A DNA stretch of 64,000 nt from Verrucomicrobiota bacterium (GTDB taxonomy: Bacteria > Verrucomicrobiota > Verrucomicrobiia > Opitutales > Intestinicryptomonadaceae), in the NCBI GenBank assembly GCA_023450935.1, contig JAEXGH010000023.1:436-64435 (forward strand), written 5' to 3'. How positions within the stretch are numbered: position 1 is the first letter of the stretch; each line of letters starts with the position of its first letter. The translations under genes and the position numbers were made by a program. Positions 9,159-29,610 of the stretch are shown here, one piece after another. Under the pieces are notes generated by a model. It did no database searches. It was not told the DNA's origin and saw only the letters and a program-made list of their open reading frames with translations.

Positions 9159-12100
9159 ATGAAAAGACTACTACCAACACTCGCCGCGTTGTCGGCTCTG
9201 TTTCAGACGGCGTTTGCGGCCGATTTGACCGAAAACGCGTGGCTTGACTACCAAGTCGTGAAAATCAACAAGGAAAGCCCGTCGGCGGCAATGAAAGTTT
9301 TTGGAAAGGCGTCCGACGCGGAAAAACCCGTTTCAATTGCCGATGTCGATAAAATCCACGAAGGCGACCGCTACAAGCTTCTTAACGGGCAGTGGAAGTT
9401 CTTCTTTGCCGACACTCCCAAGCAGGTAAAGAAGGAGTTTTTCGCCGAAAAGTTCGACGACTCCAAATGGAAGTTCATCAAAGTGCCCAACTCTTGGCAG
9501 AGCGAAGGCTACGACACCATTTTCTACAACAACACCACCCTCGAGTTCATGTATGACAAAAAGGGCAATATGTTGCCAGATTTCGTCAACGGCCCGAGTA
9601 TGTTCAAGCGCAATGTCTACGCGCCCGTAGTAAAGAAATTCTACATTCCCGAAGGGCACAAGCAGTCGGGCATCTACCGCCGCACGTTCACGGTTCCCGC
9701 CGACTGGAAGGGCGAAAACGTGTTCATACGCTTCGACGGCGTCCGCACGGGCTTCCGCTTCTTCGTAAACGGAAAGTTCATCGGCTACAGCGAAGACAGC
9801 TTCACGCCCGCGGAATTCAATATTACCGACTACATCAAGCGCGGCGCGGAAAACACGCTTGCAGTCCAAGTCTACAAATACTCGACCGGCGCGTATAACG
9901 AAATGCAGGATATGCCCCATGTTATGGGAATTATCCGCGACGTGTTCCTGCTGGCGCGTCCCGATGTCTATGTAAAAGACTACCACGCCCCCGCGGAGCT
10001 TTCCGCCGACCTCGATTCCGCGACAATAGACCTGACCGTAACGTTGCGCAACCTATCCGACAAGCCGCAAAACGGCGTCAATGTGGAGGCGTATCTGCTG
10101 GACGAAGACGGTAAAATCTTCAGAAAAAGCTTCTGGAGCGCGCCGCTTTTGGACGAAACCGCCGATGTCAAGCCCGATTCGCTTGCGCAAATCAACAAGA
10201 AAATCGACGTTTCGGGCTTCAAGCTTTGGAGTCCCGACAAGCCCAACTTCTACACGCTTTGCATAAAGCTCTCCAAAAACGGCAAAGAGCTTGAAACAGT
10301 CCGCGCCGACTTCGGCTTCAGAAAGTTCAAAATCGTCAACAGGCACCTCGAGCTAAACAACAAGAAAATGCTCATAAAGGGGGTCAACCGCCACGACTGG
10401 TCGCCCAAAACGGGCAAGGCGGTGAGTTTCGACGAAATGAAGCAGGACGTGGAGTTGATGAAGCGCGCCAACGTGAACTTCGTCCGCGCCTCGCACTACC
10501 CCAACGACGACCGTTTCTACATGCTTTGCAACCGCTACGGTTTGGCGGTTCTGGACGAAAACAACCACGAACAGCACGCGTTTTTGCGCAACCCCGCAAT
10601 CAATCTGCCAAACCACGTTCCGCAGATGGTTGACAGAGCCGAAAATATGGTATTCCGCGACAGAAACATTCCGTCGATTATGATTTTCTCGGTCGGCAAC
10701 GAGTCGTCGTTGCTCTACACGCTCGGGCACAAGGCTACGGAGCAGGTTGTGCGCAAGAATTCGCCCCAGCACTACTTCATGTCGCACGGCGAAACATACG
10801 ACATCATCAACGGCGCGCCCAACGGCACTTCCGACTTCGTAACGCCGATGTATCGCGACATCACCCAGATGGAACGCTATCTGGAAATGGACACAAAAAA
10901 ACCCTTCTTCCACGCCGAATACGCCCACGCAATGGGCAATTCAATCGGCAATTTGGAGGGAATGTGGAAGTTCCTGCGCAAGCACGAGGGCACAAACGGC
11001 GGCTTCATTTGGGACTGGGTTGACCAGTCTTTCTACCTGCCCTGCGAAAACGACAAAACAAAGAAATACCTCTCCGACGGGCGCGACTGGAATACAATCC
11101 CGACACAGCAAAACTTCTGCTGCAACGGCATAATCTTCGCCGACAGAACGGTATCGGCAAAGTATTTCGAAGTCCAAAAAGTCTACCAGCCGTTCTTTAT
11201 CGAGCAGCTCGGCAAATGCCCCCTCAAGATAACAATCACAAACGACCTCATTTCCTCGAACCTCGACGAATACACGCCCGAAGTGTCGGTTGCGCGCAAC
11301 GGGCGCGTTGTGGCAAAGAAGACGCTAAAGCCGATGTCGCTGGAAGCGGGCAAGACAAAGACGTTCGAAATCGAGCTTCCCGAATTCGACGCAACGCAGA
11401 CGGGCGAATACTTCTACACGCTCGCGTTCAAATATCCGCACAAGCTTCCCTACGCAGAGAAGGGCGAAGTTGCGGCGCAGCAGCAGTTCTTCCTCAAGAA
11501 AGTTGCCGACAAAGAATACGCGGCGCGCGGCAAAATTTCCGTGAGCGAGTCCGACACCAAGGTTGTAGTAAAGGCGGGCAAGGCGGAAATAGTCTTCAAC
11601 GCAGTGCAGAACGCGGAGCTTGTCTCCTACAAGTTCGACGGCAAAGACGTGATTGTCTCGCCCGTGGTGTTCGACTTCAAGGGCGCGGGCACCGACAATC
11701 AGCGCAGAATTTTCGCCAACGAAATCCGCAAAAACAAGCTCGGCAAACTTGTGAATGTCGATTCGAGTTTGCGCGTTCAAAAATTGGGCGAAAACGGCAA
11801 AGTTGACGCCGTCCGCATTACTTGCGAAAACGTCCTCAACAACGGCGCGGACGCGGGCTTTAAAACCACGTTCGTCTACACCATTCTGCCCGACGGCTCA
11901 ATGCAGGTCTCCTCGCAGCTTGTAAAACTCAACAAAATGCCGCGCTATTTGATGGTTGCGCGTTTCGGGCTCAGAATGGGTATAAACAAGAAATTCGACA
12001 ACGTAGAATACTTCGGCAAAGGCCCGTTTGCAAACTATATCGACAGAGCCGCCGCGGCGAACGTCGGCTTGTATAGCTCGAAAGTGGCCGACTGGTTCGA

Positions 12101-14089: not shown

Positions 14090-14116
14090 TAAAAAAACGC
14101 GGAAAAAAACCGCGTT
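14090..14116 (-). terminator. Rho-independent terminator after the ACP/GcvT-like operon
   Basis: On the minus strand: AACGCGG-TTTTTTT-CCGCGTT followed by a T-run (14096-14102 / 14110-14116, tail 14090-14095). It separates the GcvT-like gene from the MFS gene. Confidence 0.7.
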
Positions 14117-14142: not shown

Positions 14143-15189
14143 TCAGAATCCGTCCATTCCGCGCAGCAGACTTTGGGCGAGTATTGCGGGGCGCGCGACG
14201 GTCGCAAACGCGGGCTGCCCGTCTGAGTTGTCGAAGACAAGTCCCGCGTAGGCTACGGTTTCGTCTATGAGCGCGAGGGCGAACGAGGGGTCGGATTCGT
14301 CAACGGCGGCAATTTCGCCGACTTGTTGCGCGCCGTTGAAGATTCCGTCCGAAACTTTCGGCGCGGCGGCGTTTACCGCAATGAGCTTGCGTTTTTTTGC
14401 TGCTCTGGCGGCGGCGAATCTTTCTGCAAACGCGTCTTTGTGCATGTCCATTTGCCACTGCAATCCGAGTTCGAAGGGGTTTGCCGTCCTTCGCCCCTCC
14501 GCGAAAATGTTGAAAAAATTGCCTTTTGCGCGGGCGGCTAAAACCGCGCGCGTTCCCGCAAGCGCGCCTCCGAGCTCCAGCACGGCGTTTTTGAGGTCTT
14601 CGAACAACTGCGCGGCGGCGTCGTTTTCAACGAGGATTTGGTAGCCGAATTCGCCAGTTTTTCCCGCGCGCACCACTACCGCGCCGCTTCCGCGAAAATC
14701 GTATTTTCCCGCCGACATAAACGACATATTGAATATGTCCGCGCCGAAGAGCTTTTTTACCGCCTTCCACGCATCTGGGCCGTCAACGGAGAGCAATGTG
14801 TGGGTGCCGTCGATATCCGCGCCGTTTTGCGCGAATGCGTTGCGGACTTGCTCCGGAAAGTCGGTTTCTGCGAAGACGAAAATTTTGTCGTCGATATCCG
14901 CAAGCGTCGTCGCCGCGCTGACGAACCCGTTCCCGTCGGGCAAAAACGTTTCCATAGCCCTGCCGTAGCGTAGCTTCAGCACGTTGCCCGCGAGCTTTCC
15001 GTCGAGAAACTCCGCACCGTCGGCTTCGTCGAACGCGAATTTTTGGACGAACGACATATCCCAGAGCACCGCCGAATTACGCAAAGCCTCCGTTTCGCGC
15101 GCCAAGCCCGCAACGGTATCGACGCATTCCGCCGCGCCGAGCGAGCCGAGTTTTGCCCCGTTTGAAATCCACTGTTTTTCGAGCGTCAT
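14143..15189 (-). CDS. GcvT-like (aminomethyltransferase / YgfZ folate-binding fold) protein
   Basis: 348 aa. 'AVLWDMSFVQKFAFDEADGAEFLDGKLAGNVLKL..GRAMETFLPDGNGFV' follows the GcvT N-terminal pattern (lfDvSh..i.v.G.da..fL..l.tndv). A C-terminal barrel-like region ends 'AILAQSLLRG'. The ATG at 15187-15189 overlaps the stop of the upstream ACP (ATGA). Confidence 0.65.
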   Translation of the reverse strand: MTLEKQWISNGAKLGSLGAAECVDTVAGLARETEALRNSAVLWDMSFVQKFAFDEADGAEFLDGKLAGNVLKLRYGRAMETFLPDGNGFVSAATTLADIDDKIFVFAETDFPEQVRNAFAQNGADIDGTHTLLSVDGPDAWKAVKKLFGADIFNMSFMSAGKYDFRGSGAVVVRAGKTGEFGYQILVENDAAAQLFEDLKNAVLELGGALAGTRAVLAARAKGNFFNIFAEGRRTANPFELGLQWQMDMHKDAFAERFAAARAAKKRKLIAVNAAAPKVSDGIFNGAQQVGEIAAVDESDPSFALALIDETVAYAGLVFDNSDGQPAFATVARPAILAQSLLRGMDGF

Positions 15190-15467
15190 TGAGCCTCCTT
15201 TTGCGCGTTTATTATGAAGTCCACAAGCGTGTTGAACGAGCGCAGAACCGAAAGGTCGCCTTCGGGAATCTTCACTCCGAATACCGACTCGGCGCACGAA
15301 ACTATCTCGAGAATGTCGAGCGAATCAAGCCCCAGCCCCGAGCCCACAAGCGCGATGTCTTCATGTATGTCGCGCGGGTCGATATCCAAGTCGAGGCTTT
15401 CGGCGAGTTTCGCCTTCAGCTGTTCCGACACTTCCCTGCGTCGTTTCAGTTTGAGTTGGTCTATCAT
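15186..15467 (-). CDS. Acyl carrier protein (cluster ACP 1)
   Basis: 93 aa from the ATG at 15465-15467. Phosphopantetheine attachment motif 'GLGLDSLDILEIV'. Confidence 0.8.
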   Translation of the reverse strand: MIDQLKLKRRREVSEQLKAKLAESLDLDIDPRDIHEDIALVGSGLGLDSLDILEIVSCAESVFGVKIPEGDLSVLRSFNTLVDFIINAQKEAQ

Positions 15468-15548
15468 AAAAATAATGTCGAATTTCTCAAAAAAAAGGTC
15501 GATTATGCCAACATAATTGGCACGATATTTCAAGCATAAACACAAGTT

Positions 15549-16256
15549 ATGAAATTTTGCATAGTCATTCCCTGCTACAACCACGAGGAAACGCTCGCCG
15601 CCGCAGTGGCGTCGCTGCCCGCGGGCGTTGACGTAGTTGTTGTGGACGATGGCAGCAACACTCCCATAGGGGCTGTCGGCGGGGCGGAGGTTTTGCGGCT
15701 GGAAAAAAATTCGGGCAAGGCGGCCGCGTTAAGGGCTGGGTTTGCGCGGGCGCGTTCGCTGGGCGCAACGCACGTTATTTCAATGGACGCCGACGGTCAG
15801 CACCCCGCCGAATATCTCGGGAAAATTATGGACGCCGCGCGGGAAAATCCCGAAAACATAGTTGTTGCCGTGCGCGATTTCGACAATCCCGCAGTGCCTG
15901 CGGGGCGGCGGTTTCTGAACCGTTTTTCCAATTTCTGGTTTCGGGCGGAAACGGGAAAAACATTGGGCGACACGCAGTGCGGCTTCCGCTGCTATCCGCT
16001 GGAGGTGCTTGAAAGACTCGATTTGCGCTTGGGCGGATTCGCCTTCGAAGTCGAACTTCTCGTCAAGGCGGCGTGGGCGGGAACGGATTTTTGCGAAGTG
16101 CCCATTCCCGCAATATACACGGCGCAGACGCTTGCAAAGTCGCATTACAAGCCGTTTTCGGACACGCTGAAATTTTCGGCTATGAACACGCGCCTGTTTT
16201 TCGAATCGGTTTTTCTGTCGAAAAGCGCGCTGAAAAAAATCGTCCTTAAAAAATGA
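15549..16256 (+). CDS. Family 2 glycosyltransferase
   Basis: 'CIVIPCYNHEETL', 'VVVDDGSNTP' and 'SMDADGQH' (DxD). 235 aa. Confidence 0.8.
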   Translation: MKFCIVIPCYNHEETLAAAVASLPAGVDVVVVDDGSNTPIGAVGGAEVLRLEKNSGKAAALRAGFARARSLGATHVISMDADGQHPAEYLGKIMDAARENPENIVVAVRDFDNPAVPAGRRFLNRFSNFWFRAETGKTLGDTQCGFRCYPLEVLERLDLRLGGFAFEVELLVKAAWAGTDFCEVPIPAIYTAQTLAKSHYKPFSDTLKFSAMNTRLFFESVFLSKSALKKIVLKK

Positions 16257-18625
16257 ACATTCGGGCGGCTACGGATTTTGTGATGCGCTTCAAGGCGGCT
16301 GTCGTTGCGACGGCGGTTGCGGTTGCGTGCGCGGCGGCGGTTGTTGTTTCCCGCGCGGATTTCGCCGAAAACATATACGACGCCGTCCCGAAGTCGGACG
16401 CCGTGATACAGTCGCACATTTGGGCGAACAAAATTTTCAACCGCGCCGACGCCCTTTTTTTCGACGTCGAAAAATCCGTCAACGCGCCCGCGTTCGTTGC
16501 CGAACTCGCCGCGCGCCTTGCCAAAGTAGACGGCATTTCGCGCGTTTCTGGGGCGGCTTCTTCCGCCAAATTCGACCCGCGCATACTCGCATACGTTCCC
16601 GCGGTTTTCGACGCCGCCGCGGCGGAATCGCTTTCGCAAAAATTGACGGAATCCGCGCTTGCCGAACGCTTCCTTTCGCTTAAAAAGGCCGTTTTGGGCA
16701 ACGACTACGCCGCAAAATTCGCCCTGAAATACGACGCCCTCGGCGTTTTTGCCGCCGCCGCGCAAAACCTCAAAACGCGCGCGCTGCCCGCGGGCGTATC
16801 GACGGAGGGCTCGCGCATTGTTTCGGCATCGGGCGGCTCGTATTTGGTCGTCGCGGAAGGTTCGTTTGCGTGTTCCGATTCCGGACGAAGCGGGCGTCTT
16901 GTTGCCGATGTCTTAAAAATCCTCGACGACCTCAAAGCCCGCTATCCCGATGTCAGCGCGGCGTTCGCGGGCGGATACAGAGTGGCTGCCGACAACGCCG
17001 CAATAGCCAAAGCCGACTCCTTCAAATGTCTTTGGCTTACAATCGCAGTTATGGCGGTGCTGTGTGCGTTTTCGTTCGGCAACAGGGTTTTCGCGCTCGT
17101 AGCCCCGTTGCCTTCGGTGTTCGGCTCGGCGGTTGCGTTCGCTGTTGTGTGCGCGTTTTTCCCGACCGTTTCGGCGGTGTCCGTCGCGTTCGCGGGAATC
17201 GCAATAGGGGTGAGCATTGACTACGCGATACACGTTTTGTCGGCAATCGACGCGCGCTCGGGCGAATACCGCGCCGCCGACGCCCGCGCAGACTTTGCAG
17301 GGCTGGCGCGCCCCATAGGCGTCGTCTCCGCAACTACGGCGGCGGCCTTCGCGCTGATGTTGTGCTTCGGCGGCGACGGCTTTTTGCAGCTCGGAATTTT
17401 CGGGGTGGCGGGCATATTCGTTTCGGCGGCGGCAAGTTTGACGCTGCCCGCGCTGTTCTCGGGAATGCGGCTTAAAAACAGGGTTCGGCGGACGCTGCCC
17501 GAAATTGCCGGAGCTGCGCTGGCGCGTTTTTCGCGGTCGAGACTTTCGCTTGTTGTGTTTGTTTTGCTGAGCGTTTTTGCGGCGGCGAACGTTTCGAAAG
17601 TCGGCTTCAACGGCGACTTGTCTTCGTTCAACATAAGAACCTCCGCCGCGCGCGCAGACTACGACTGCATTCGAAAAAATTGGGACGGCGTGCTCGGCGG
17701 CAAAAGCGTTGTTTTGCGCGCCGAAAATTTCGGGGAATTGCTTGCGGCGAAGGAGCGGCTCGACGTATTTTTCGAATCGCGCGGCATTGCAGCCTCGGGG
17801 TTGCAGACTGCGTTGCAGCCCGTGCGGATACAGCGCGAAAACGCCGAACGCTGGCGCGCGTTCTTTGCCGACCCCGCGTTGCGCGAACGTGTGCGCGATG
17901 CATGCAAAAAAGCGGGGCTGAATTTCGGACGCATTTATTCGGCATACGAAAAGAATCCCGAAATGCTCGCCGATACTGCCGCGTTCGCCGCCTCGCCGCT
18001 CGCCGAAATTATGCGCGGCTGCGTCCGCGCCGACGGCGGGGTTTGCGCGCTTTCGGCTTCTTTTGCTCCGCCCGAGGGCTTCGACGCGCCCGCGTTCGCC
18101 GCCGCACTTGCGCGGTCGGTTCCCGAAGCGTCGCTTGTCGATGCCGCATACCTCGGTTCGCGCATAGCCGACATTTCATTTGAATGGCTCGCGAAGTTTG
18201 CCGCGGCGGCCTTCGCGTTTGCGGGCGTTTATTTGTTCGCGGTTTACGGCTGTTGTGTTCGCGCGGTGGCGGCGGTCTTGATTCCCGTTGCGGTAGGGCT
18301 TTTCTGGAGCTTCGGCGCGATGGGCTTTTTCGGAATACAAATCAACATAATAAATTCCGTGTTCGTGGTGTTTGCCGTGTGCATGGCGCAGGATTACGCC
18401 GTGTTTGTCTTCAACGGCGTGCGGCGCGGCGGCGGGATTGCGCGTGTGTTCGCGCCCGTATTTTTGTCGGCGGCGACAACGGTGTCGGCGTTCGGGGTTT
18501 TGTGCGTTTCAAAACACCCCGTTATAAACGGTCTAGGCGCGGCTTCGGCGATTTCGATTTTCGGAATATTTTTGGCTTGCGCGTGTCTTGCGGAAAGGAT
18601 TTCCCGATATGGAAAAAAATCTTAA
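16253..18625 (+). CDS. MMPL / RND-superfamily lipid exporter
   Basis: 790 aa arranged as two blocks, each a periplasmic loop followed by about 5-6 hydrophobic helices. The size and topology are typical of MMPL exporters found in aryl-polyene-type loci. ATGA overlap with the GT2 gene. Confidence 0.7.
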   Translation: MNIRAATDFVMRFKAAVVATAVAVACAAAVVVSRADFAENIYDAVPKSDAVIQSHIWANKIFNRADALFFDVEKSVNAPAFVAELAARLAKVDGISRVSGAASSAKFDPRILAYVPAVFDAAAAESLSQKLTESALAERFLSLKKAVLGNDYAAKFALKYDALGVFAAAAQNLKTRALPAGVSTEGSRIVSASGGSYLVVAEGSFACSDSGRSGRLVADVLKILDDLKARYPDVSAAFAGGYRVAADNAAIAKADSFKCLWLTIAVMAVLCAFSFGNRVFALVAPLPSVFGSAVAFAVVCAFFPTVSAVSVAFAGIAIGVSIDYAIHVLSAIDARSGEYRAADARADFAGLARPIGVVSATTAAAFALMLCFGGDGFLQLGIFGVAGIFVSAAASLTLPALFSGMRLKNRVRRTLPEIAGAALARFSRSRLSLVVFVLLSVFAAANVSKVGFNGDLSSFNIRTSAARADYDCIRKNWDGVLGGKSVVLRAENFGELLAAKERLDVFFESRGIAASGLQTALQPVRIQRENAERWRAFFADPALRERVRDACKKAGLNFGRIYSAYEKNPEMLADTAAFAASPLAEIMRGCVRADGGVCALSASFAPPEGFDAPAFAAALARSVPEASLVDAAYLGSRIADISFEWLAKFAAAAFAFAGVYLFAVYGCCVRAVAAVLIPVAVGLFWSFGAMGFFGIQINIINSVFVVFAVCMAQDYAVFVFNGVRRGGGIARVFAPVFLSAATTVSAFGVLCVSKHPVINGLGAASAISIFGIFLACACLAERISRYGKKS

Positions 18626-19496
18626 ATGGAACGGACGCTCCTACGGCGGGCGTTTCGGCAACGGAGTTTTCGCGGTGTTGCTGCGCTTCGGGCGAATGCC
18701 CGCGTATGTGCTGATGGCGTTTGTCGCCCTGTTTTTTATGCTTTTCAGGCGCAGGCAGTGCGCGGCAAGTTCCGAGTATTTAAGCGCGCGGTTCGGCGAA
18801 AAAGTAGGCGCGGTTTCGTGGCGGGCATACAGACATTTGTTTTCGTTCGGAATGGCGATAATCGACAAATACGCATACTTCTCGGGCGCAAAAATGGAGA
18901 TTTTCGATGAATGCGGCGCGCAGATACGCAAGTCGCTTTCGCGCGGGAAGGGGGCAGTTTTGGTGGTCTCGCACATAGGCGGCTGGGCTATTTCGGGCGG
19001 GCGTCTTGCCGAATACGACTGCCCCGTGGGCGTAGTCGGCATTTCGGCTGAGCACGACTACATCGAGAAAATGAAGAACAGGCGTCTTGTCCGCAAAGAG
19101 CCCGCAATGATAGCCTCCGCCTCCGACCCGTTTTCGATGGTGGCAGCGATGTCGCTTTTGCGCAAAAACGGAATTGTTGCAATGCACGGCGACAGATACG
19201 TCGGAGGAAAATTCGCGCGCGTGCGGTTCCTGGGGCGGGAGGCGCGCCTGCCTGTTTCGGCGTTCGCCCTCGCCGCCAAAACGGGGGCTACGGTCTTCAA
19301 TGTTTTCTGCGTGCGCACGCGTTCGGGAGGATATAAAATGACGGCGTCTTGCGGGCTGACAATTCCGGATTTGCGCGGCGCGGAACTTGACGCCGCCCTT
19401 GCCGACGTCGCGCGCGCATACGCCGCCGACATCGAGGACGTTTTGCGCGAACACCCGTTTGAGTGGTTCAACTTTTATCCCTTTTGGCAGCAGTGA
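18609..19496 (+). CDS. Lipid-A-biosynthesis-type (LpxL/HtrB family) lysophospholipid acyltransferase
   Basis: N-terminal TM segment, 'GAVLVVSHIGGWAISG' (HxGxW motif region) and 'IVAMHGDRY'. The ATG at 18609 overlaps the MMPL end by 17 nt. The ORF-track start at 18588 is a TTG. Confidence 0.6.
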   Translation: MEKNLKWNGRSYGGRFGNGVFAVLLRFGRMPAYVLMAFVALFFMLFRRRQCAASSEYLSARFGEKVGAVSWRAYRHLFSFGMAIIDKYAYFSGAKMEIFDECGAQIRKSLSRGKGAVLVVSHIGGWAISGGRLAEYDCPVGVVGISAEHDYIEKMKNRRLVRKEPAMIASASDPFSMVAAMSLLRKNGIVAMHGDRYVGGKFARVRFLGREARLPVSAFALAAKTGATVFNVFCVRTRSGGYKMTASCGLTIPDLRGAELDAALADVARAYAADIEDVLREHPFEWFNFYPFWQQ

Positions 19497-19541
19497 TTTT
19501 TCTTGCAAGGGTCGGCGCATTGCCTTAGCTTTGCGGACAGA

Positions 19542-19805
19542 ATGGATAGAAATACTTTGATTGCCGACCTAAAGCGAAACATCATAAAATCGCTCAACCT
19601 CCCAGACGTGTCTCCCGAAGACATCGGCGACGATTTGCCGCTGTTCGAGGCCGAAGGGCTGGGGCTCGACTCGGTTGACGCGCTCGAGCTTGTGGTCATG
19701 GCGGAGCGCGACTACGGCGTTTCAATCGACGACAAGGACGAGGCAAAATCGGTCTTCGGCTCTGTTTCGGCACTTGCCGACTACATAATTGCGCACAAGA
19801 AATAG
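19542..19805 (+). CDS. Acyl carrier protein (cluster ACP 2)
   Basis: 87 aa from the ATG at 19542. 'GLGLDSVDALELV'. Confidence 0.8.
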   Translation: MDRNTLIADLKRNIIKSLNLPDVSPEDIGDDLPLFEAEGLGLDSVDALELVVMAERDYGVSIDDKDEAKSVFGSVSALADYIIAHKK

Positions 19806-19807
19806 GT

Positions 19808-21928
19808 ATGCAAAGGGGCGTATGCGTTGTGTCTGTCGGCGTTTGCGCCTGCTCGGGAAATACTCCGCAGTCCGCGCTTGAGTGCGCGCTCGGCAAAACA
19901 CGCGATTTTTTCGCGCCCGTTTCGAGTTTCGAAAGCCCGCGCCACTCGGCGAAAATGGTGGGCTATGCGCGCCCCGCGTCGGACTTCGGCGGAAAGTTGC
20001 TGCCTCATTGCGCCAAGATTTTGTTTTCGGCACTTGATGGCGCGCTTGAAGGGCTTGATTTTTCTGAAGTCGATTCGGGGCGTAAATCGCTTTATTTGGG
20101 CACGAGTATCGGCGGAGTTTTCGAGTCCGAAAATATGCTTGCGCGCAATATGGCTTCGCCCGAAAACGGGTCGTGGCGCGAGCTGAAGTTTTACGAGTGC
20201 TCCGCGCTTTCCGAGTTGGCGGCAAAACGCTGCGGCTTCGGCGGAGAGTGCGCCGCGTATTCAACCGCGTGCTCCAGCTCATACATAGCGCTTGCCGATG
20301 CCTGCAACGCAATAGTTCAGGGCGACTGCGATGTCGCCGCCGTGTGCGGAGCCGACGCGCTTTCGCGCATAACCCTCAACGGGTTCGGCTCGCTTTTGCT
20401 GTTGTCGCAGTCGCGCGCGCGCCCGTTCGACAGGCTGCGCGACGGCATCAATTTGGGCGAGGCCGCCGCCGTCCTGATTTTGGCGTCGGAGCGTTTCGCC
20501 GAAAAAATTTCGCGCAAAAAGCCGCTTGCGTATGTTTCGGGTTGGGCGTGCACCGCCGACGCATACCACGCAACCGCACCTCACCCGCGCGGAGAAGGGG
20601 CGGCAAGGGCGATGAAAAACGCGCTCGACTTCGCCGGAATTGCGCCCGAAAAAATTTCTTATTACAACGCCCACGGCACGGGCACAAAGGGCAACGATAC
20701 CGCCGAATACGCCGCGATTGAGTCGGTTTTCGGCGCGGGCGGCGTCCCGTATTCTTCAATCAAACGCGCGTTCGGGCACACGCTCGGGGCGAGTGGCGCG
20801 CTCAATGCGGCAGTGTCGATTTCGTCGATGAATGCGGGCGTGCTTGTTCCCAATTTGGGCTATTCCGACGGCGGCGGCGAATTTGCGCGCGCGCCGATTA
20901 CAGAGCCTTCCCGCGCGGAGCTTGAAAACGTTTTGAGCGTTTCGCTCGGTTTCGGTGGCAACAACGCGGCGGCGGTTTTTTCGAAAAAAGACGTTCCGCA
21001 TTCGGCGCGGAAGCGCAGACTGTTTGTGTATTCGGCGGCGGAGGTAGCCCCGTTCGCTTCGGGCGGGCAGACCGTCCGGCTTCCCGATTTGCTGCCGAAC
21101 GTCGCCGCCCTAAAAAAACGCCGCTGGGCGAAACTCCAGCAAATGGTTTTGGATTGCGCCGAAAGATGTCTGGACGGGCTCGACATTTCGAACGCGGAAA
21201 AAATCGGCGTGTGCTTCGGCACGGGCGCGGGAATGGTATCGGAGACGCGCAGGTTCATCGAGGCCACGATTTCCAAGCGCGAAGCCGAGCCCATACCGAG
21301 CGCGTTTGCAAATTCGGTGCACAATGCGGCTGCTTCGGCGATTTCGCTGAAGTTCGGACTGAAGGGTTTGAACAGCGCGGTCAGCGCGAAGGAGGTTTCC
21401 TTTGAGGCGGCCTTGAAACAGGCTTGGCGCGCCGTCTGCGCGGGCGCGCTCGACTCCGCCGTGGTTTGCGCGGGCGACGAATATTCAGACCTCGCCGAAA
21501 AGTTTGTCGGGCAAAACGCGGTTTTCGCGAAGCCCTCCAAACCGCTTACCGACTATGCATGCGCGTATTTTGTAGGCGCGGAAAACGTCGGCCTGTCGGG
21601 CGGCGGGGCGGCGAAACCGCTTGCCGAAATAAAATCGCTCGAAGTATTCCGCAGAAAATCGGCGCGTGAGACGGCTGAATTGCTTGCGGGTTGCGCTCGC
21701 GCGTATTTGTCAGCTCCCGACAACGCGAATCTGCGCGCCTTTGCCGATTCGGTTTTCGCGCTTGCGGGCGTCGGGCGCGTGTGCGATGTTTCGGAGCATT
21801 GCGGCGCGAACTATTCGGCTTCGGGCGCGGCGTTTGCGGCGGCCTTGCGCGACGGCGCGGGGCTTGCGGCTTCGGTCTCGCTTTCGAGCGCGGGAATGTG
21901 CGCGGTTACGGTTTTCGAGGTTTTATGA
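19808..21928 (+). CDS. Beta-ketoacyl synthase fused to a CLF-like second KS-fold domain
   Basis: 706 aa. The N-terminal half has the Cys-His-His triad contexts 'YSTACSSSYIAL', 'YNAHGTGTKGND' and 'FGHTLGASG'. The C-terminal ~300 aa ('FANSVHNAAASAISLKFGLKGLNSAVSAKEVSFEAAL', 'VVCAGDEY') is KS-like but has no TACSS-type cysteine. Confidence 0.8.
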   Translation: MQRGVCVVSVGVCACSGNTPQSALECALGKTRDFFAPVSSFESPRHSAKMVGYARPASDFGGKLLPHCAKILFSALDGALEGLDFSEVDSGRKSLYLGTSIGGVFESENMLARNMASPENGSWRELKFYECSALSELAAKRCGFGGECAAYSTACSSSYIALADACNAIVQGDCDVAAVCGADALSRITLNGFGSLLLLSQSRARPFDRLRDGINLGEAAAVLILASERFAEKISRKKPLAYVSGWACTADAYHATAPHPRGEGAARAMKNALDFAGIAPEKISYYNAHGTGTKGNDTAEYAAIESVFGAGGVPYSSIKRAFGHTLGASGALNAAVSISSMNAGVLVPNLGYSDGGGEFARAPITEPSRAELENVLSVSLGFGGNNAAAVFSKKDVPHSARKRRLFVYSAAEVAPFASGGQTVRLPDLLPNVAALKKRRWAKLQQMVLDCAERCLDGLDISNAEKIGVCFGTGAGMVSETRRFIEATISKREAEPIPSAFANSVHNAAASAISLKFGLKGLNSAVSAKEVSFEAALKQAWRAVCAGALDSAVVCAGDEYSDLAEKFVGQNAVFAKPSKPLTDYACAYFVGAENVGLSGGGAAKPLAEIKSLEVFRRKSARETAELLAGCARAYLSAPDNANLRAFADSVFALAGVGRVCDVSEHCGANYSASGAAFAAALRDGAGLAASVSLSSAGMCAVTVFEVL

Positions 21929-22536: not shown

Positions 22537-23048
22537 GAAGGCTTCCCGCATTTGCGGCGTTTGTTTTTTTTGCGGTTTCGGCATATTGCCAAGTAGCCGA
22601 ATTCGGCTTGCGTTCGGCTTCTTTGCGGCAGAGGGGCGTGTGCAAAACGCAGTCCGCGGAGTTTGCCGTAGACTTGATGTTGTCGGTTTCCGACACCCTC
22701 AAAATCGTTTTGCGCAACGATTTTGCAACGCTTGCAAAGCTCGAGTTTTCGAAGTCGGGCGAATTGCTGAAATCGTCGGCGGGCGCGTGGGGAAACGGCG
22801 GAGATGTCCGCGAGTTCGCCGCACTGATGAAGCTTGCGCTCGGCTTTTATCCCGCTCCGCCCGCGGTTGTCCACACGGTTTCCGACGCCGCGGGCAATCC
22901 GCTTAAAATAGTAGATTTTGACGGCGGGCGCGAAATCGATTTTTCGTATGCGCCAAACGCCCGCGCGGGCGCAGTGCCCGATTCGCTGGAAATAAAAAGC
23001 GGCGGGTGCATTTTGAAACTGAAAACAGTGCAGATTTTAAGAAAATGA
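22533..23048 (+). CDS. Small exported protein of unknown function (cluster-associated)
   Basis: 171 aa with the signal-like N-terminus 'MRRLPAFAAFVFFAVSAYC'. ATGA overlaps to both neighbours argue that it is translated. I recognise no motif in it. Confidence 0.5.
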   Translation: MRRLPAFAAFVFFAVSAYCQVAEFGLRSASLRQRGVCKTQSAEFAVDLMLSVSDTLKIVLRNDFATLAKLEFSKSGELLKSSAGAWGNGGDVREFAALMKLALGFYPAPPAVVHTVSDAAGNPLKIVDFDGGREIDFSYAPNARAGAVPDSLEIKSGGCILKLKTVQILRK

Positions 23049-25435
23049 ACCCGATACAACCGACGGCCGCAATAAGCGGCATTGGCATTTTTTCCCCCAT
23101 AGGAAATTCCCCGCGCGAAGTTGAGGCTTCGCTGCGCGCGCAAAAAGACGGCATAGCGCTGGTATCGAAAATAGACACTTCAAAATTTGCGTCGCACATT
23201 GCCGCCGAAGTGCGCGGCGTGGACTTTTCAAAGGAGCTTTCCGCGCGCGAACTGGAGGATTTTACCGACCCTTTTTTGCGCCTTGCCCTTGTCGCCGCCA
23301 AGGCGGCAATGCGCGACGCGAAAATCGAAACGTCCCGCCGACGCGACGACATAGCAATGGTTCTTGCAACGTGCAATGCGGGCATGACAAAGCAGGAGCT
23401 TGAATACAGGGCGTTGAACGGCTTCGACGAACCCTTCTCGCGCCGCGACTCAATGCAGGGAGAGTTCTACGCGATAGCCCGCGCGTTCGCTTCGGCGTTG
23501 AATTTGGGCGGGGCGTGCTTTGTCATAAACACGGCGTGTTCGGGCTCTACCGCGGCGGTCGGCTTGGCGCAGACTCTCGTTCGGCAGGGTAAATACAAGA
23601 CGGTTTTGGCGGGCGGAGCCGACGCGCTCGCGCTTGCGAATTTTGCGGGCTTTAGCGCGCTCAAAGTTGTTTCGCCCGAAAAGACCGCGCCGTTTTCGAA
23701 CCCCGCGGGAATGAACATAGGAGAGGGCGCGGCGTTCTGGATTGTGGAGGAATCGGGCTCGGCGAAATCGCGCGGGGCGAAAGTCTACGGAAAGATAATC
23801 GGCCGCGCCACTGCGGGCGACGCCCACCACCCCACCCAGCCCGATCCCCGCGGCGACGGCGCGTTCAGGACAATGCGCGCGGCTTTGGAAAATTCGGGCG
23901 CGGCGTTGGAGGATATCGGCTGCATAAACGCGCACGCTTCGGGAACGTCGGCGAACGACAGGGCGGAGTCGAAGGCGGTTGCAAAGTTTGTAGGCGCGTC
24001 GGGCGTTCCGTTCACCTGCACAAAGTCATACCACGGGCATTGCATGGGCGCTACGGGCATAATAGAGGCAACCTGCCAGCTGCTTGCAATGAACGGCGGC
24101 TTCATTCCGCCCACGCTGCGCTTCGGCGAATTGCGCGCGGGTTGCGCGGTTGCGCCCGTTTCCGAATTGCGCGAAGTTGAATATAACTGTTTCCTTTCGG
24201 CAAACTACGCGTTTGCGGGCAACAACGCCGCAGTTGTGGTTGCGCGCAACGGCTTCGAAAAATACGCACCGCGAGCCGAGAAAAAACTCCGCAAGGTGAT
24301 TTCGGGGCTGTCGGCGGTTTCGCCGCTCGGGCTTGGCATGGACGCCAATCTGGAGCGTTTGGGCGAAGGTTTTTGCGCCGTGGGCGGTGTTTCACGCTTT
24401 GAATGTGCCGCGAAAGCTGGAACGGTTTGCCTGCCGAATCCGCGCACGCTCGACCGCCGCATAGATTTTTCGGGAATGAATTTCATCGGCGTGTGTTCCA
24501 CGCTTGCCTGCGCCCGCGCGCTGGAGTCGGCTAAACTGCGCGCCGCCCGCGACGATTCAGTCGGGCTTGTCGCCGCCGTTTCGCGCGGGGCAAGCCGACA
24601 GGCGCATATGGCGGGTGTTTTTTCCGACCCGCAAATGCGTGGCGACATTGCCTGCTTTTCCAACGTGACGCCGAACTCCACTGCGGGCTGGGTTTCGAAA
24701 GCTCTGGAAATCAGGGGCGCGAACACGACTTTCACTTCGGGGCACAACTGCGGTTTGCAGACGCTCGAATACGCCTCCATGTTAATCGACGGCGGCGACG
24801 CCCGCGCGCTTGCCGTTTTTGCCGCCGACGAGCTTTCCGCCGAGCAGATGAACGCCTACGAAAGAATCGGCTATCTGCGTTCGGGCGACAAATTCAATTT
24901 GCGCTACGCCGACGAATACGCTACGTTTTTCGGCGAAGGCTCTTGCGCGGCGGTTGTGGAAAGTCTCGAGAGTGCGCAGGCGCGCGGCGCGGAGATTTTC
25001 GGCGAAATTTTGGGCGCGGCATCGACTATGGACGGCGGCGATTTCTTCGACGCCGACATGGCCTCCGACGGGCTGCAACACGCCGCAGAGGCGGCGGTTT
25101 CGCAGGCGGGATTGGATTTTGCCGACATTGATTTGATTGTGTGGTCTCCGCGCGGCAGTGCGGTTGACTCAACCGCCGTGAACGTGCGCGACAGGCTTTT
25201 CGGCGGCGTTCCGATGGCGACGACCGTTTTCAACACGGGCTATATGGAAACGGCGTCTTCGCTGTTTTCGCTTGCGTGTGCGCTTTATTCATACGCGCGG
25301 GGTGGTTGTTTGTGGCGGCAGCTCACTGGCGTGGAGGGCTTCGACGGCGCGGTTTTTCCGAAAAATCCGAAACATATTTTGGCTTTGGCAAATTCGTTTA
25401 CGGGCGCGAACTACGCAGTTGTTGTGGGGCGTTAG
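23045..25435 (+). CDS. Beta-ketoacyl synthase fused to a CLF-like second KS-fold domain
   Basis: 796 aa from the ATG at 23045. The N-terminal half has 'INTACSGSTAAVGL', 'INAHASGTSAND' and 'YHGHCMGATG'. The C-terminal ~380 aa is KS-like ('FFGEGSCAAVVESLESAQARGAEIFGEI') but lacks the His-His motifs and a canonical active-site context. Confidence 0.8.
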   Translation: MNPIQPTAAISGIGIFSPIGNSPREVEASLRAQKDGIALVSKIDTSKFASHIAAEVRGVDFSKELSARELEDFTDPFLRLALVAAKAAMRDAKIETSRRRDDIAMVLATCNAGMTKQELEYRALNGFDEPFSRRDSMQGEFYAIARAFASALNLGGACFVINTACSGSTAAVGLAQTLVRQGKYKTVLAGGADALALANFAGFSALKVVSPEKTAPFSNPAGMNIGEGAAFWIVEESGSAKSRGAKVYGKIIGRATAGDAHHPTQPDPRGDGAFRTMRAALENSGAALEDIGCINAHASGTSANDRAESKAVAKFVGASGVPFTCTKSYHGHCMGATGIIEATCQLLAMNGGFIPPTLRFGELRAGCAVAPVSELREVEYNCFLSANYAFAGNNAAVVVARNGFEKYAPRAEKKLRKVISGLSAVSPLGLGMDANLERLGEGFCAVGGVSRFECAAKAGTVCLPNPRTLDRRIDFSGMNFIGVCSTLACARALESAKLRAARDDSVGLVAAVSRGASRQAHMAGVFSDPQMRGDIACFSNVTPNSTAGWVSKALEIRGANTTFTSGHNCGLQTLEYASMLIDGGDARALAVFAADELSAEQMNAYERIGYLRSGDKFNLRYADEYATFFGEGSCAAVVESLESAQARGAEIFGEILGAASTMDGGDFFDADMASDGLQHAAEAAVSQAGLDFADIDLIVWSPRGSAVDSTAVNVRDRLFGGVPMATTVFNTGYMETASSLFSLACALYSYARGGCLWRQLTGVEGFDGAVFPKNPKHILALANSFTGANYAVVVGR

Positions 25436-25543: not shown

Positions 25544-26575
25544 CTATGCGTGCGGGTATACCGACGGCAGAGCGTCGGCGAAGTCGAGCACCGTTCCGCC
25601 CCACGAAAGCCCCACGCCGAACGCGCATACAAGCACTTTCATTCCGCGCTTTATTCTGCCCGCCGCCACCGCGTCGGCGATTGCTATTGCGGGGCTGCTC
25701 CCGCCGCAGTTGCCGATATTGCGCACGTCCAGATAGACTTTTTCGGCGTCCAGTTTCAGGCGTCGGGCGGCGGCGCGCACAATCATTTCGCCCGCCTGAT
25801 GGAACACGAACAAGTCGATGTCTGCCTTGGAAAGCGCGTTGCGTTTCAGCGTCTGCTCAACACACTGCGGGATTGTTTTGAACGCGAACGAGAAAATTTT
25901 CAGCCCGTCAACAAACAGGTCTGCAGCCGCGCGGACGTTGCCGTTGCCGTCGTCGCGTTCGATGTAGTCTTCGGGACGGGGCGGGCGGCGCATTCCCGAG
26001 GCGGGGCAAATCAGGTCGGCGTAGCCGCCGCCGTCGGTTCCCAGCGAAAATTTGCCCAAGCGCGCCCCCCTACCGCGCTCCACAACGCATGCGCAGGCGG
26101 CGTCGGAGAAGAGCGACACCGCGCTCTTGTCTTTGGGGTTGATTAGTTTCGAGGGGGTGTCGCCGCAAAGAAGCAGCACTTTTTCCGCCATTGAAGAGTC
26201 CACATATGCCGCGGCGGTCGCCAGCCCGTAGATAAATTGCGTGCAGCCGAGGTTGATGTCGAACGCGGCTGCGGAAGTTTTCAGACCCAGTCTGTCCTGC
26301 AGAATGCAGGCGGTTGACGGCAGGAGGTAGTCGGGCGTTTGGGTCGCGAAAAAGAGGGCGTCGAAAGAATCGGGCGCGTGCGTTTCGAGAATGCGTTTTG
26401 CCGCCGCAAACGCGAGGTCGGAGGCGCACTCGTCGGGCGCGGCAATTCGCCGTTCGTATATGCCCGAAGCGGCGGCTACTTTCTCCATCACCTCCGCGCC
26501 GAAACGTTTGCAGAGTTCGGCGTGCGTGAGCGTCGCGTTCGGGAGCGCGTATGAAATTGCCGTTAGCGACGCCAT
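25544..26575 (-). CDS. FabH-like 3-oxoacyl-ACP synthase III (KAS III family)
   Basis: 343 aa. The Cys-His-Asn triad contexts are 'FDINLGCTQFIYGL', 'FVFHQAGEMI' and 'IGNCGGSS'. The C-terminus is 'CAFGVGLSWGG'. The ATG lies 2 nt after the tonB-like stop. Confidence 0.8.
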   Translation of the reverse strand: MASLTAISYALPNATLTHAELCKRFGAEVMEKVAAASGIYERRIAAPDECASDLAFAAAKRILETHAPDSFDALFFATQTPDYLLPSTACILQDRLGLKTSAAAFDINLGCTQFIYGLATAAAYVDSSMAEKVLLLCGDTPSKLINPKDKSAVSLFSDAACACVVERGRGARLGKFSLGTDGGGYADLICPASGMRRPPRPEDYIERDDGNGNVRAAADLFVDGLKIFSFAFKTIPQCVEQTLKRNALSKADIDLFVFHQAGEMIVRAAARRLKLDAEKVYLDVRNIGNCGGSSPAIAIADAVAAGRIKRGMKVLVCAFGVGLSWGGTVLDFADALPSVYPHA

Positions 26576-26577
26576 GA

Positions 26578-27390
26578 TTATTTTGCCGTAAACGTTATGG
26601 AAATTGTGTGCGGTTTGTTGTCGGGCGGCGCGGGGATTGTGATTGCCCTGAGCACTTGGATAACCGATTTGTCGAAGTCGTCGTCGCCGCTTGATTCAAT
26701 GATTCTGACGTTGCTGATTGCCCCCAGCCTGCTTACGCTGAACGCCACTTTGGCATAGAGCGAGTCGCTCGAAATTGTGGGCACTTTCCAGTTGCGCTTT
26801 GCAAGCATCAAGATTTCCTGACTGTATGCGGCAAGCATATCAACAACTGCGCCCGCGTTCGGCCCCGCCGACGGGCGCGGGTTTTGCGAGAGACTGTCGA
26901 GATTGCTTGTTTGCGAAGTGATTTTGCCGATTTTTACGGGCTTTTGTTGCGGGCGTTTTGTCGGCTTTTTTTGCGAAGTCTTTTTGTTCTTCTTTTTCCA
27001 CTCGTCGAACAAAACGGTTTTTTGCGCGGGTTTTCTCTCGACTTTTTTAGGCTCGGGTTTCGGAGCTGGCTTGGGCGAAGGTTCGGGGTCGGGCGGCGTG
27101 GGCTGCGGTTCCGGCTCGGGCTGCGGCGGGACGGGTTCCGGAATTTCCAGCGGGTCGATTTCCTCTATTTTTTCGACGTTCAATTCCGGCTCGGCGGGCT
27201 CGGGCTGTTGCGGGGAGCTTACCGCCGACTGCGGCTCGGGGTCTACCATTTCGAAAACAACCTTGTTTTCCACGTTTTTTTCTTTCGGGAAAAGCGTGTT
27301 TACGAGCGCGTATGCGAACATTGCAACCGCCACGATTACATGCAACGCCGCCGAATAACAGTAGCCGAGCTTTGTGTTATCGACGCTCAT
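26578..27390 (-). CDS. TonB-family energy transducer
   Basis: N-terminal TM anchor, a Pro/Glu/Lys-rich spacer 'PEPVPPQPEPEPQPTPPDPEPSPKPAPKPEPKK' and a C-terminal TonB_C-like domain 'VAFSVSRLGAISNVRIIESSGDDDFDKSV'. ATGA overlap with exbD. Confidence 0.7.
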   Translation of the reverse strand: MSVDNTKLGYCYSAALHVIVAVAMFAYALVNTLFPKEKNVENKVVFEMVDPEPQSAVSSPQQPEPAEPELNVEKIEEIDPLEIPEPVPPQPEPEPQPTPPDPEPSPKPAPKPEPKKVERKPAQKTVLFDEWKKKNKKTSQKKPTKRPQQKPVKIGKITSQTSNLDSLSQNPRPSAGPNAGAVVDMLAAYSQEILMLAKRNWKVPTISSDSLYAKVAFSVSRLGAISNVRIIESSGDDDFDKSVIQVLRAITIPAPPDNKPHTISITFTAK

Positions 27391-27797
27391 TTCACTTCGG
27401 TGTCGAGGTGCAGTTTTGTGAGATTGTGGCGTTTGATTGCGTCTATTACGTCCACAATTTTCTGGTAGGGAAGTATGAAATCGGCGCGCAGGCTGATTGC
27501 GGGCGGGTCTTTATCGTTGGCGAGCATTCCGAGCAGTCTGTCAAGCTCCGCCATATCCACGGGCTGTTTGCCCCAGTAGATCTGCCCCGCCTTTGTAATG
27601 GAGATTACCTGAAACTTGATTTCGGGGCGTTGGCTTGCCGAATTTTTTTCCTGCTTGGGCAGGTTAATCGGGATTGTCTGCTCCAAAAGCGGCGTGCTTA
27701 TCATGAAGATGATGAGCAAAGAGAACGCCAAGTCCATAAGCGGGGTAACGTTCAATTCCGTCATTACGGAGAGAGACTGTCGGCGTTTTAATTTCAT
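27387..27797 (-). CDS. exbD: ExbD/TolR biopolymer transport protein
   Basis: 136 aa. 'ELNVTPLMDLAFSLLIIFMI' is the typical ExbD N-terminus. ATGA overlap with exbB. Confidence 0.8.
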   Translation of the reverse strand: MKLKRRQSLSVMTELNVTPLMDLAFSLLIIFMISTPLLEQTIPINLPKQEKNSASQRPEIKFQVISITKAGQIYWGKQPVDMAELDRLLGMLANDKDPPAISLRADFILPYQKIVDVIDAIKRHNLTKLHLDTEVK

Positions 27798-28630
27798 TCT
27801 TCGTCGAAGTTCGAAATTTCTTCGGAGTCGTCGTCGAGGCTGAAGTCTATGATTTTAGAGGCGTCGGGCGAAGTTGTCATTCTGCCCGAAACGGAAGCCG
27901 TTTTCGGCTCCCTCGTAGCGGCGGCTACGGGTGCGGCCGCCACCGATTCTATTTCGATTTTGTCGGAGAGCAGTCCCGCGTAGTTCTCTATATCAATGGT
28001 CATCTGCTTGATTTTCGAGCTTAGGTAGTTGTAGCCGAAAACCGACGGAATTGCTACAACCAGACCGGCAACCGTGGTAAGAAGCGCGCCAGCAACGCCG
28101 GGGGCGAGCTGCTGGAGCGTAACCGAAGTCTGCCCGCTCATCGACCCGAAGCAGTCCATAACGCCCCACGCCGTTCCGAGCAGCCCCAAGAACGGCGCGC
28201 CGCTTATAATTGTCCCCAGCAGAACCATTTTTGACTCGTATTTTTCGAGCTGTTCCGAGACGCTTCTGTTGAGCGCGTTTTCAATCATTGCCGTGCGCGT
28301 CGCCGCGGGCACGCGCGCCGCGTTTCCGAGCGACGCCAGCGTGTTGATTGCGTCTTTGAGAAGCTTCCCGAAGGGGCTTGCGCCCTGCAGCGCACCCGCC
28401 GCCTCAATCAGCGAGCGGTATTTCGCCACTTTCCTGTGCGCCGACTTGTTCATTTCGTCAATCGAAACTAAGTCCGAATACTTGCAGAACATAACTCCCC
28501 AAGCCATAACGCTCAGAACAAGAAGAATTACCACAATTACCTGTCCCGCAAAATTCGACTGGAAAAAGTAGTCGGTCAGCGTGTCTCCCACGACGTTTGT
28601 TTTCAAAGCAAAGTTTACAAAAAAGTTCAT
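27794..28630 (-). CDS. exbB: MotA/TolQ/ExbB proton-channel protein with an acidic C-terminal tail
   Basis: 278 aa. 'GTIISGAPFLGLLGTAWGVMDCF' and 'LAPGVAGALLTTVAGLVVAIP' are signature helices. It has a ~60-aa tail ending 'DFSLDDDSEEISNFDEE'. Confidence 0.8.
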   Translation of the reverse strand: MNFFVNFALKTNVVGDTLTDYFFQSNFAGQVIVVILLVLSVMAWGVMFCKYSDLVSIDEMNKSAHRKVAKYRSLIEAAGALQGASPFGKLLKDAINTLASLGNAARVPAATRTAMIENALNRSVSEQLEKYESKMVLLGTIISGAPFLGLLGTAWGVMDCFGSMSGQTSVTLQQLAPGVAGALLTTVAGLVVAIPSVFGYNYLSSKIKQMTIDIENYAGLLSDKIEIESVAAAPVAAATREPKTASVSGRMTTSPDASKIIDFSLDDDSEEISNFDEE

Positions 28631-28724
28631 ACAAACGGGTAGTATTGTCGCAGCTTTGGAAAAATCGAGATTTTTTTTTTGCGAAACAGCGATTTTTTAC
28701 GCCGCGTCCCGTTTCGGGCGGAAA

Positions 28725-29507: not shown

Positions 29508-29610
29508 TTCCGCAATAATCCACGTTTCGGATTTTTTTTCAAGAGTTTATAATCGGTATTTCCCATTTTGGCTTGACTATTTCCGCGTTTTTTTAACCTA
29601 CTGTCGGTGT

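Follow-up and report, generated by a model that had tools for sequence, protein, structure and literature searches.

In glycine cleavage, the three-domain T-protein (GcvT) works with a small carrier, the lipoylated H-protein, whose swinging arm ends in a thiol, and the GCV_T fold of the T-protein is considered synonymous with folate chemistry. Human GcvT contacts tetrahydrofolate (THF) through Met56, Asp101, Tyr197, Glu204 and Arg233; the first four are invariant among the folate-binding proteins of the fold, Asp101 is essential to catalysis, and Glu204 makes a double hydrogen bond to the pterin (PMC9551070). The folate-dependent demethylases DmdA and LigM use this fold on small molecules, outside glycine cleavage and without a carrier protein. 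YgfZ and Iba57, for which folate dependence is disputed or refuted, provide a precedent for a T-protein fold that has taken a new role without the canonical folate contacts, and Iba57 has been described as keeping the tunnel for the carrier arm with the pterin pocket lost (PMC9551070). Here we describe a further case from a 64,000-nucleotide stretch of a Verrucomicrobiota bacterium (order Opitutales; GenBank assembly GCA_023450935.1, contig JAEXGH010000023.1, positions 436 to 64,435), hereafter 'the window', in which a GcvT-like protein (GcvTL) is encoded together with an acyl carrier protein (ACP), ACP1. The pair belongs to an undescribed branch of the GCV_T fold that is locked to an ACP and probably works without folate.

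The second set of described systems that bears on this locus is that of the type II polyketide lipid clusters for aryl polyenes (APE), with genes ApeA-S, in E. coli, Xenorhabdus and Acinetobacter. A GCV_T-fold component did not turn up for these clusters in the literature searched, and in full-text searches we met no publication that connects a protein of the GCV_T fold with an ACP or with clusters of this kind. At the core of an aryl-polyene-like lipid cluster, the ACP1–GcvTL pair serves as its marker, including in Verrucomicrobiota of the human gut.

The ACP1–GcvTL pair and its conservation

The two genes lie on the minus strand and diverge from a lipid operon on the plus strand. Their features are as follows:

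15186..15467, minus strand: ACP1, acyl carrier protein of 93 amino acids (aa); PF00550, E 1.3e-8; attachment serine Ser49 within GLGLDSLD
14143..15189, minus strand: GcvTL, GcvT-like protein of 348 aa with the GCV_T fold; PF01571, E 6.6e-27, 94.8 bits, residues 28-245
15186..15189, minus strand: ATGA overlap of the ACP1 stop (TGA) and the GcvTL start (ATG), by direct sequence reading
14096..14116, minus strand: intrinsic-terminator-like hairpin AACGCGG-TTTTTTT-CCGCGTT followed by a T-run, just past the GcvTL stop, closing the two-gene operon
15468..15548, no strand: divergent intergenic spacer between ACP1 and a glycosyltransferase gene, 81 bp, 29.6% GC, the presumed promoter region

ACP1 is identified as an acyl carrier protein by its PP-binding domain and by the attachment serine in a DSL-type motif, with phosphopantetheinylation predicted. 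Its top NCBIfam match is the phosphopantetheine-binding protein family NF006617/PRK09184, at 40 bits against a cutoff of 70. The first-pass annotation had the ACP1 stop and the GcvTL start sharing the tetranucleotide ATGA, and reading of the sequence confirms this, implying that translation of the two genes is coupled. It had also given the operon its own terminator, which we find as the hairpin and T-run at 14116..14096. In the case of the AT-rich promoter region that it placed between the divergent operons, the 81-bp spacer and its low GC content (29.6%, against a window average of ~55%) hold, and the promoter stays presumed: a single sigma-70-like match was found where 0.6 are expected by chance, and no other. 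The -10 hexamer of this match (TTGAGA-16-TATGAT at 15463-15490, minus strand) covers the start codon of ACP1, and the match could be either a chance match or a sign that local transcription does not follow sigma-70 rules.

Scanning one genome per species confirmed relatives in 277 stretches from several phyla, making this a large branch; the locus counts given here and below refer to the best 80, with gene neighbours labelled by matching six-frame open reading frames to the window's own proteins. These 80 loci come from six or more phyla and span Opitutales, other Verrucomicrobiota, Fibrobacterota (Chitinispirillaceae, Chitinivibrionales, Fibrobacter), Victivallales, Kiritimatiellia, Omnitrophota and Planctomycetales. 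The nearest relative is an Opitutales bin from a human-gut metagenome with 88% identity. An ACP1 homologue lies directly upstream of GcvTL on the same strand in 78/80 loci, and the other two begin at a contig end, so that the co-occurrence of GCV_T and PP-binding genes raised in the first-pass annotation extends across genomes. The junction between the two genes is an ATGA overlap in 35 loci, an apparent GTGA overlap in about 12, an overlap of 8 or 13 nucleotides in 14 and TAATG in 4; a gap of 0-6 nucleotides is seen in about 11 loci and a gap of more than 6 in 2. Members that are distant (27-31% identity) or have other motif variants, namely P0090, P0100, P0132 and P0108, likewise have a PP-binding gene directly upstream, either overlapping or abutting, and this holds for every distant member with sequence available on that side.

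Fusions of the two proteins also occur. A protein-cluster search returned a family of 350-370-aa GCV_T proteins, one of which (P0036, 428 aa) begins with a PP-binding domain. When 1.84 billion cluster representatives were searched with a profile, three more in-frame ACP::GCV_T fusions came up (P0128, P0224 and P0232), confirmed with Pfam; the four belong to divergent lineages and come from different 50%-identity clusters or from a separate find. The family profile matched 584 such clusters at E ≤ 1e-30, some canonical T-proteins among them. A frameshift artefact behind the P0036 fusion was considered and rejected, as stop codons crowd both alternative frames and the linker at the junction is clean and in frame; three further fusions exist in other clusters. 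Both the fusions and a ~345-aa subfamily (e.g. P0088, P0090, P0123) lack the first ~30-35 residues of GcvTL, and in the fusions this missing segment is replaced by the ACP and its linker. There is a hint here that the ACP is located near the N-terminal face of GcvTL. In an AlphaFold2 model of P0036 (pTM 0.76), the GCV_T part is confident and the ACP part has a pLDDT of 45-68; the alignment was without depth over the ACP part, and the placement of the ACP in this model is uninformative on docking.

Compared with the 88%-identical relative, dN/dS is 0.134 for GcvTL and 0.094 for ACP1, and the pair is therefore maintained by purifying selection. These observations support a pairing that is real, ancient and functional, and not one of chance. 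The analogy to the T-protein and its H-protein drawn in the first-pass annotation is likewise supported, by conserved adjacency, overlap, fusions and purifying selection. GcvTL and GcvT share the three-domain fold and a small carrier with a thiol-ended swinging arm, the link in our case being a genetic one (coupling and fusion), but the carrier of GcvTL is a four-helix phosphopantetheinyl ACP and not a lipoylated H-protein. ACP1 and GcvTL thus form a conserved module of an ACP and a T-protein-fold partner, coupled in stoichiometry and in some cases fused, within a lipid pathway of type II polyketide character, hosted by Verrucomicrobiota, Fibrobacterota and Lentisphaerota relatives.

Some occurrences stand apart from this pattern. 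In one locus (L047, 10004-11086) the GCV_T-like gene matches as two pieces (10004-10498 and 10523-11086), which suggests a frameshift or a pseudogene. The module is also present in two bins far from the main hosts, one titled uncultured Bifidobacteriaceae (L051) and the other Rokuibacteriota (L062); the Bifidobacteriaceae assignment may be a binning error.

Fold and folate pocket of GcvTL

The AlphaFold2 model of GcvTL (pLDDT 95.9, pTM 0.93) keeps the three-domain T-protein architecture. Foldseek aligned this model to the T-protein 1WOO with a TM score of 0.86 (E 9e-28), against 0.60 for YgfZ (1VLY) and 0.53 for Iba57. Searched against solved structures, the family profile gave 1WOO (E 6e-46) and 1YX2 as its best matches, followed by the folate-binding domains of dimethylglycine dehydrogenase and by DmdA, and no YgfZ or Iba57 chain was among the matches. 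The T-protein motifs E..R...D.S and RxGxTGE are retained in the GcvTL family. At the level of protein families, GcvTL falls far below the GcvT equivalog cutoffs, with 55.6 bits against 235.85 for TIGR00528 (gcvT), 71.9 against 300 for NF001567 and 63.6 against 459 for NF010093. It also stays under the level of the demethylases, with 44 bits against 410 for DmdA and 26 against 580 for LigM, and NCBIfam holds no model specific to the family.

These placements bear on the possibility that GcvTL is a housekeeping protein of the YgfZ/Iba57 type, or a genuine glycine-cleavage protein, which neighbours an ACP gene by accident. The GCV_T Pfam domain would fit such a role, as would public records, which label some homologues 'glycine cleavage system aminomethyltransferase T' or aminomethyltransferase. 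YgfZ and Iba57 have a Cys motif in the C-terminal part of the protein, but the single Cys of GcvTL is at position 22, near its N-terminus; the family profile hits no YgfZ or Iba57 structure, the TM scores to these proteins reach only 0.53-0.60, and neither has an ACP-gene linkage. Adjacency to the ACP in 78/80 loci and the existence of fusions speak against accident, as does the score of 55.6 bits against the TIGR00528 cutoff of 235.85 for a true GcvT. In the window, the neighbours of GcvTL are ACP1 and an MFS transporter, and no glycine-cleavage association is seen, with the limit that gcvH and gcvP themselves were not searched for; the context is that of a polyketide/lipid cluster. The first-pass annotation had named grouping with YgfZ, together with an adjacency that is not conserved, as grounds for abandoning its proposal; the protein groups with true T-proteins and the adjacency is kept. 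We therefore give an accidental housekeeping or glycine-cleavage role hardly any chance: the YgfZ-type role was rejected on the profile matches and on a TM score of 0.60 against 0.86 for the T-protein, and is effectively refuted. Homologues from this family that public records call 'aminomethyltransferase' or 'glycine cleavage T' are thus probably misnamed.

The residues of the THF pocket were mapped through HMMER alignments to the T-proteins of T. maritima and B. subtilis, DmdA and dimethylglycine dehydrogenase, and through a MAFFT alignment of 143 members of the core family, and the two approaches were concordant. The five positions that contact THF in human GcvT read as follows:

Human Met56: hydrophobic in the 143 members; Val48 in the window, hydrophobic still
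Human Asp101: Asp in 86 members, Glu in 37, Ala/Ser/Thr in 18; Ala93 in the window
Human Tyr197 (pterin-stacking): Lys in 138 members; Lys177 in the window
Human Glu204 (pterin-binding): Leu in 62 members, Gln in 53, Ser in 14, never Glu; Gln184 in the window
Human Arg233 (GcvT-specific): His in 112 members, Leu in 21, Val in 5; Val216 in the window

Tyr197, Glu204 and Arg233 are thus replaced family-wide, and Asp101 in the window protein as well. The T-protein motif G-Y-T-G-E-D-G-F-E aligns to G-K-T-G-E-F-G-Y-Q in the window. The corresponding segments of DmdA (GWSKQGGYE) and dimethylglycine dehydrogenase (SYTGELGWE) retain the aromatic residue and the Glu where the window protein has Lys and Gln, so that DmdA, a GCV_T-fold enzyme that matches GcvTL weakly, as does LigM, differs from it by W....E in place of K....Q. 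A motif scan extended to the wider superfamily showed nearly every residue at the Glu204 position, with Glu there just now and then. Those sequences of the scan that have the canonical aromatic-plus-Glu motif do retain this Glu, and the four that were checked with Pfam (P0124, P0126, P0180 and P0218) score strongly as canonical GCV_T domains. Rebuilding of the Tyr197, Glu204 and Arg233 positions across the family argues against canonical folate binding and, judged from the alignments, the canonical THF contacts are lost in the GcvTL family.

The first-pass annotation had proposed one-carbon or aminomethyl chemistry, or demethylation, on an ACP-tethered intermediate or headgroup. GcvTL would then be a folate-dependent analogue of the T-protein that transfers such a group to or from the phosphopantetheine-tethered substrate of ACP1, or demethylates it. 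The nearest relatives of GcvTL in both sequence and structure are true folate-dependent T-proteins, the retained T-protein motifs point the same way, the coupling to an ACP parallels the pairing of T-protein with H-protein, and 123/143 members still have an acidic residue, Asp or Glu, where the catalytic Asp stands. The pocket does not support this chemistry. The pterin-binding Glu and stacking Tyr, invariant in the folate binders of the fold (PMC9551070), are Gln and Lys in the window; the Glu204 position is never Glu in the 143-sequence alignment and is highly variable in the wider scan; and in the window protein the catalytic Asp has become Ala and the GcvT-specific Arg has become Val. With the five contacts reading Val48, Ala93, Lys177, Gln184 and Val216, the proposal is not supported, and the alignment to GcvT and DmdA from which it was to be judged shows the aromatic residue and Glu not conserved in GcvTL. 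The surroundings agree, as an Rfam search around the operon matched no family, with glycine and THF riboswitches absent, no second GCV_T protein is encoded elsewhere in the window, and no folate or one-carbon metabolism gene adjoins the pair. We consider folate-dependent transfer or demethylation on ACP1 quite unlikely.

Pathway position and proposed role of the module

The genes around GcvTL in related loci place the module within chain assembly. A short-chain ketoreductase gene lies directly downstream of GcvTL in 66 of the 75 loci with room for one, a 4HBT-type thioesterase gene frequently separates them, and in many cases a malonyl transferase gene comes next. Two ketosynthase/chain-length-factor fusions are encoded directly upstream on the same strand in 35 loci, and nearby genes of related loci specify an ApeI/ApeP-like dehydratase, a PlsC-type acyltransferase and a flavoprotein. 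The description of ACP1 as a dedicated ACP in the first-pass annotation fits the window, which has a second ACP, but does not carry over to the loci with co-directional ketosynthases: in 34/35 of these the ACP1 homologue is the sole ACP within 10 kb, and it is therefore the main pathway carrier there and not an accessory one.

Two positions of the former THF pocket vary together. Asp or Glu at the Asp101 position is accompanied by His at the Arg233 position in 111/143 sequences, and wherever Ala, Ser or Thr has replaced the acidic residue (18 sequences), Leu or Val stands instead of the His (18/18). These 18 make up the clade of the window, comprising the window protein, proteins within P0001-P0016, and L001, L003 and L004, and this clade overlaps the loci without a downstream ketoreductase. 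Across 76 diverse sequences, Arg174, Lys177, Glu180, Tyr183, Arg220, Asn227, Glu231, Asp248, Lys251 and Arg262 form a set of invariant or nearly invariant polar residues in the core.

One way to account for the module is as a scaffold or chaperone that is non-catalytic throughout the family, binding ACP1 one to one and shielding a tethered intermediate that is reactive, in the way that loaded H-protein is stabilised by the T-protein. The tight translational coupling and the fusions imply just such a one-to-one stoichiometry, the position that once bound the pterin is free to vary, and the window clade is still under purifying selection without the Asp/Glu-His pair. However, the many core polar residues that are invariant or nearly so across the 76 sequences, and an Asp/Glu-His pair that is kept in 111/143 members and lost jointly, are more in keeping with an active site than with a surface that is passive. 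A scaffold role for the whole family is therefore unlikely in our judgement.

The best explanation overall, in which we place slightly better than even confidence, is that GcvTL has been repurposed as a subunit that depends on an ACP and not on folate, in a type II polyketide/lipid pathway resembling that of aryl polyenes. The central cavity of a T-protein takes a group from the swinging arm of its carrier, and in GcvTL the client would have switched from lipoyl-H-protein to phosphopantetheinyl-ACP. In most members, the Asp/Glu-His pair together with the Lys in the former pterin pocket would probably perform folate-independent acid/base chemistry on an ACP-tethered acyl intermediate, at or before ketoreduction, the gene for which normally comes directly next. 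The reactions considered were a priming decarboxylation of malonyl-ACP, a dehydration or isomerisation, and release of the chain, and none is favoured on present evidence. The window copy, with Ala93 and Val216 and without a downstream ketoreductase, is most likely an ACP1-binding subunit with reduced or altered catalysis, because both the acid-His pair and the ketoreductase are gone yet purifying selection persists; it would hold the ACP1-bound chain, or hand it over to the divergently encoded genes for lipid assembly and export. A broader form of this proposal, that the T-protein fold was recruited as a new class of carrier-protein-dependent enzyme whose Lys/His/acid pocket serves an undescribed step of an envelope-lipid pathway, we hold to be plausible at somewhat less than even confidence; that pathway would be widespread, in gut Opitutales, Fibrobacterota, Lentisphaerota and relatives. 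If true, this would be a concrete and testable case of one enzyme scaffold exchanging its carrier-protein client, from lipoyl-H-protein to phosphopantetheinyl-ACP.

Several points weigh against a repurposed, folate-independent subunit. The acidic residue at the catalytic Asp position remains in 86% of members, and Gln184 could hydrogen-bond the pterin, so that folate might be bound in a non-canonical way, which we think improbable. The proposed mechanism is drawn from residue patterns and gene order, and the closeness of the Asp/Glu, His and Lys is deduced solely from the equivalent GcvT residues, all of which contact THF. The ACP of the P0036 fusion model is of low confidence (pLDDT 45-68), and docking of the arm into the tunnel is a proposal. 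Lastly, a search of the window for cluster ketoreductase, dehydratase and thioesterase genes found none, so that the pathway there would be incomplete or split.

The divergent lipid operon and other genes of the window

Across the spacer from ACP1, the plus strand carries a run of lipid and polyketide genes:

15549..16256, plus strand: family-2 glycosyltransferase, first gene of the divergent lipid operon; PF00535, E 8.8e-22
16253..18625, plus strand: MMPL/RND-like membrane exporter of 790 aa; weak NCBIfam matches to HpnN and HAE3, with PF03176 MMPL in the orthologue of L081
18588..19496, plus strand: LpxL-type (lipid A/lysophospholipid) acyltransferase; PF03279, E 2e-19
19503..19805, plus strand: ACP2, second carrier protein, of the aryl-polyene-cluster ACP type; PF00550; NF006617/PRK09184 at 69.6 bits against a cutoff of 70
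19808..21928, plus strand: ketosynthase and chain-length-factor-like domains in one polypeptide of 706 aa; PF00109, PF02801, PF13723
21691..23048, plus strand: two small conserved cluster proteins without a Pfam or NCBIfam family, the start codon of the first being uncertain
23006..25435, plus strand: second ketosynthase of 809 aa, the C-terminal half of the fusion being ketosynthase-like; PF00109, PF02801

The glycosyltransferase gene has the identical divergent placement in 28 Opitutales-type loci, and homologues of the two small cluster proteins are found at the equivalent position in related loci. Homologues of the 809-aa ketosynthase in other phyla are encoded directly upstream of ACP1–GcvTL on the same strand. 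Both window ketosynthases (706 and 809 aa) are single polypeptides with a second half that is ketosynthase-like (chain-length-factor-like), an arrangement for which type II systems usually have separate subunits. The top NCBIfam match of the 706-aa protein is NF006618/PRK09185, at 276 bits against a cutoff of 407.

The window shares with APE clusters the pairing of ketosynthase and chain-length factor, an ACP with PRK09184 as its best-scoring family and a set of lipid-anchoring and export genes (LpxL-type acyltransferase, glycosyltransferase and MMPL exporter); the likeness to the ApeI/ApeP-like dehydratase, ketoreductase and thioesterase holds for the related loci only. APE families are the best-scoring ones for the cluster proteins, at or below their cutoffs (PRK09185 276/407, ACP2 69.6/70, ACP1 40/70 bits). 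Unlike APE clusters, the window has its ketosynthase and chain-length factor fused and is without an ApeH-type adenylating starter enzyme: no AMP-binding domain, and with it no starter-activating adenylating enzyme, was found among the window cluster genes scanned with Pfam. The flavoprotein and PlsC-type acyltransferase of related loci were also searched for in the window, and none is present.

Versions of the cluster in other phyla differ from APE clusters in a further respect, carrying a B12/radical-SAM domain fused to a ketosynthase. In the Chitinivibrionales and Verrucomicrobiae loci that were looked at (L082, 3524-7279; L083, 5588-9343), the first ketosynthase is a 1251-aa fusion of a B12-binding/radical-SAM part with ketosynthase and chain-length factor; the domain is absent from the Opitutales version in the window. 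Its presence suggests possible radical chemistry (methylation or cyclisation) on the growing chain. L083 further encodes a 1044-aa protein in which an MMPL transporter domain is joined to a SAM-dependent methyltransferase domain (16019-19153), adjoining a glycosyltransferase-DUF2062 fusion and an AMP-binding gene, the only AMP-binding gene among the loci looked at.

Facing the last gene of the lipid operon in convergent orientation is a ketosynthase III gene of the FabH type (25544-26575, minus strand; NF006829, 250 bits with the cutoff at 249), and both a primer of the lipid pathway and a housekeeping enzyme are conceivable. It is followed at 26578-29994 by genes for TonB, ExbD and ExbB, then a ZIP-family metal transporter and a long open reading frame with a Fur-family regulator as its C-terminal part, all of which look unrelated to the ACP1–GcvTL pair.

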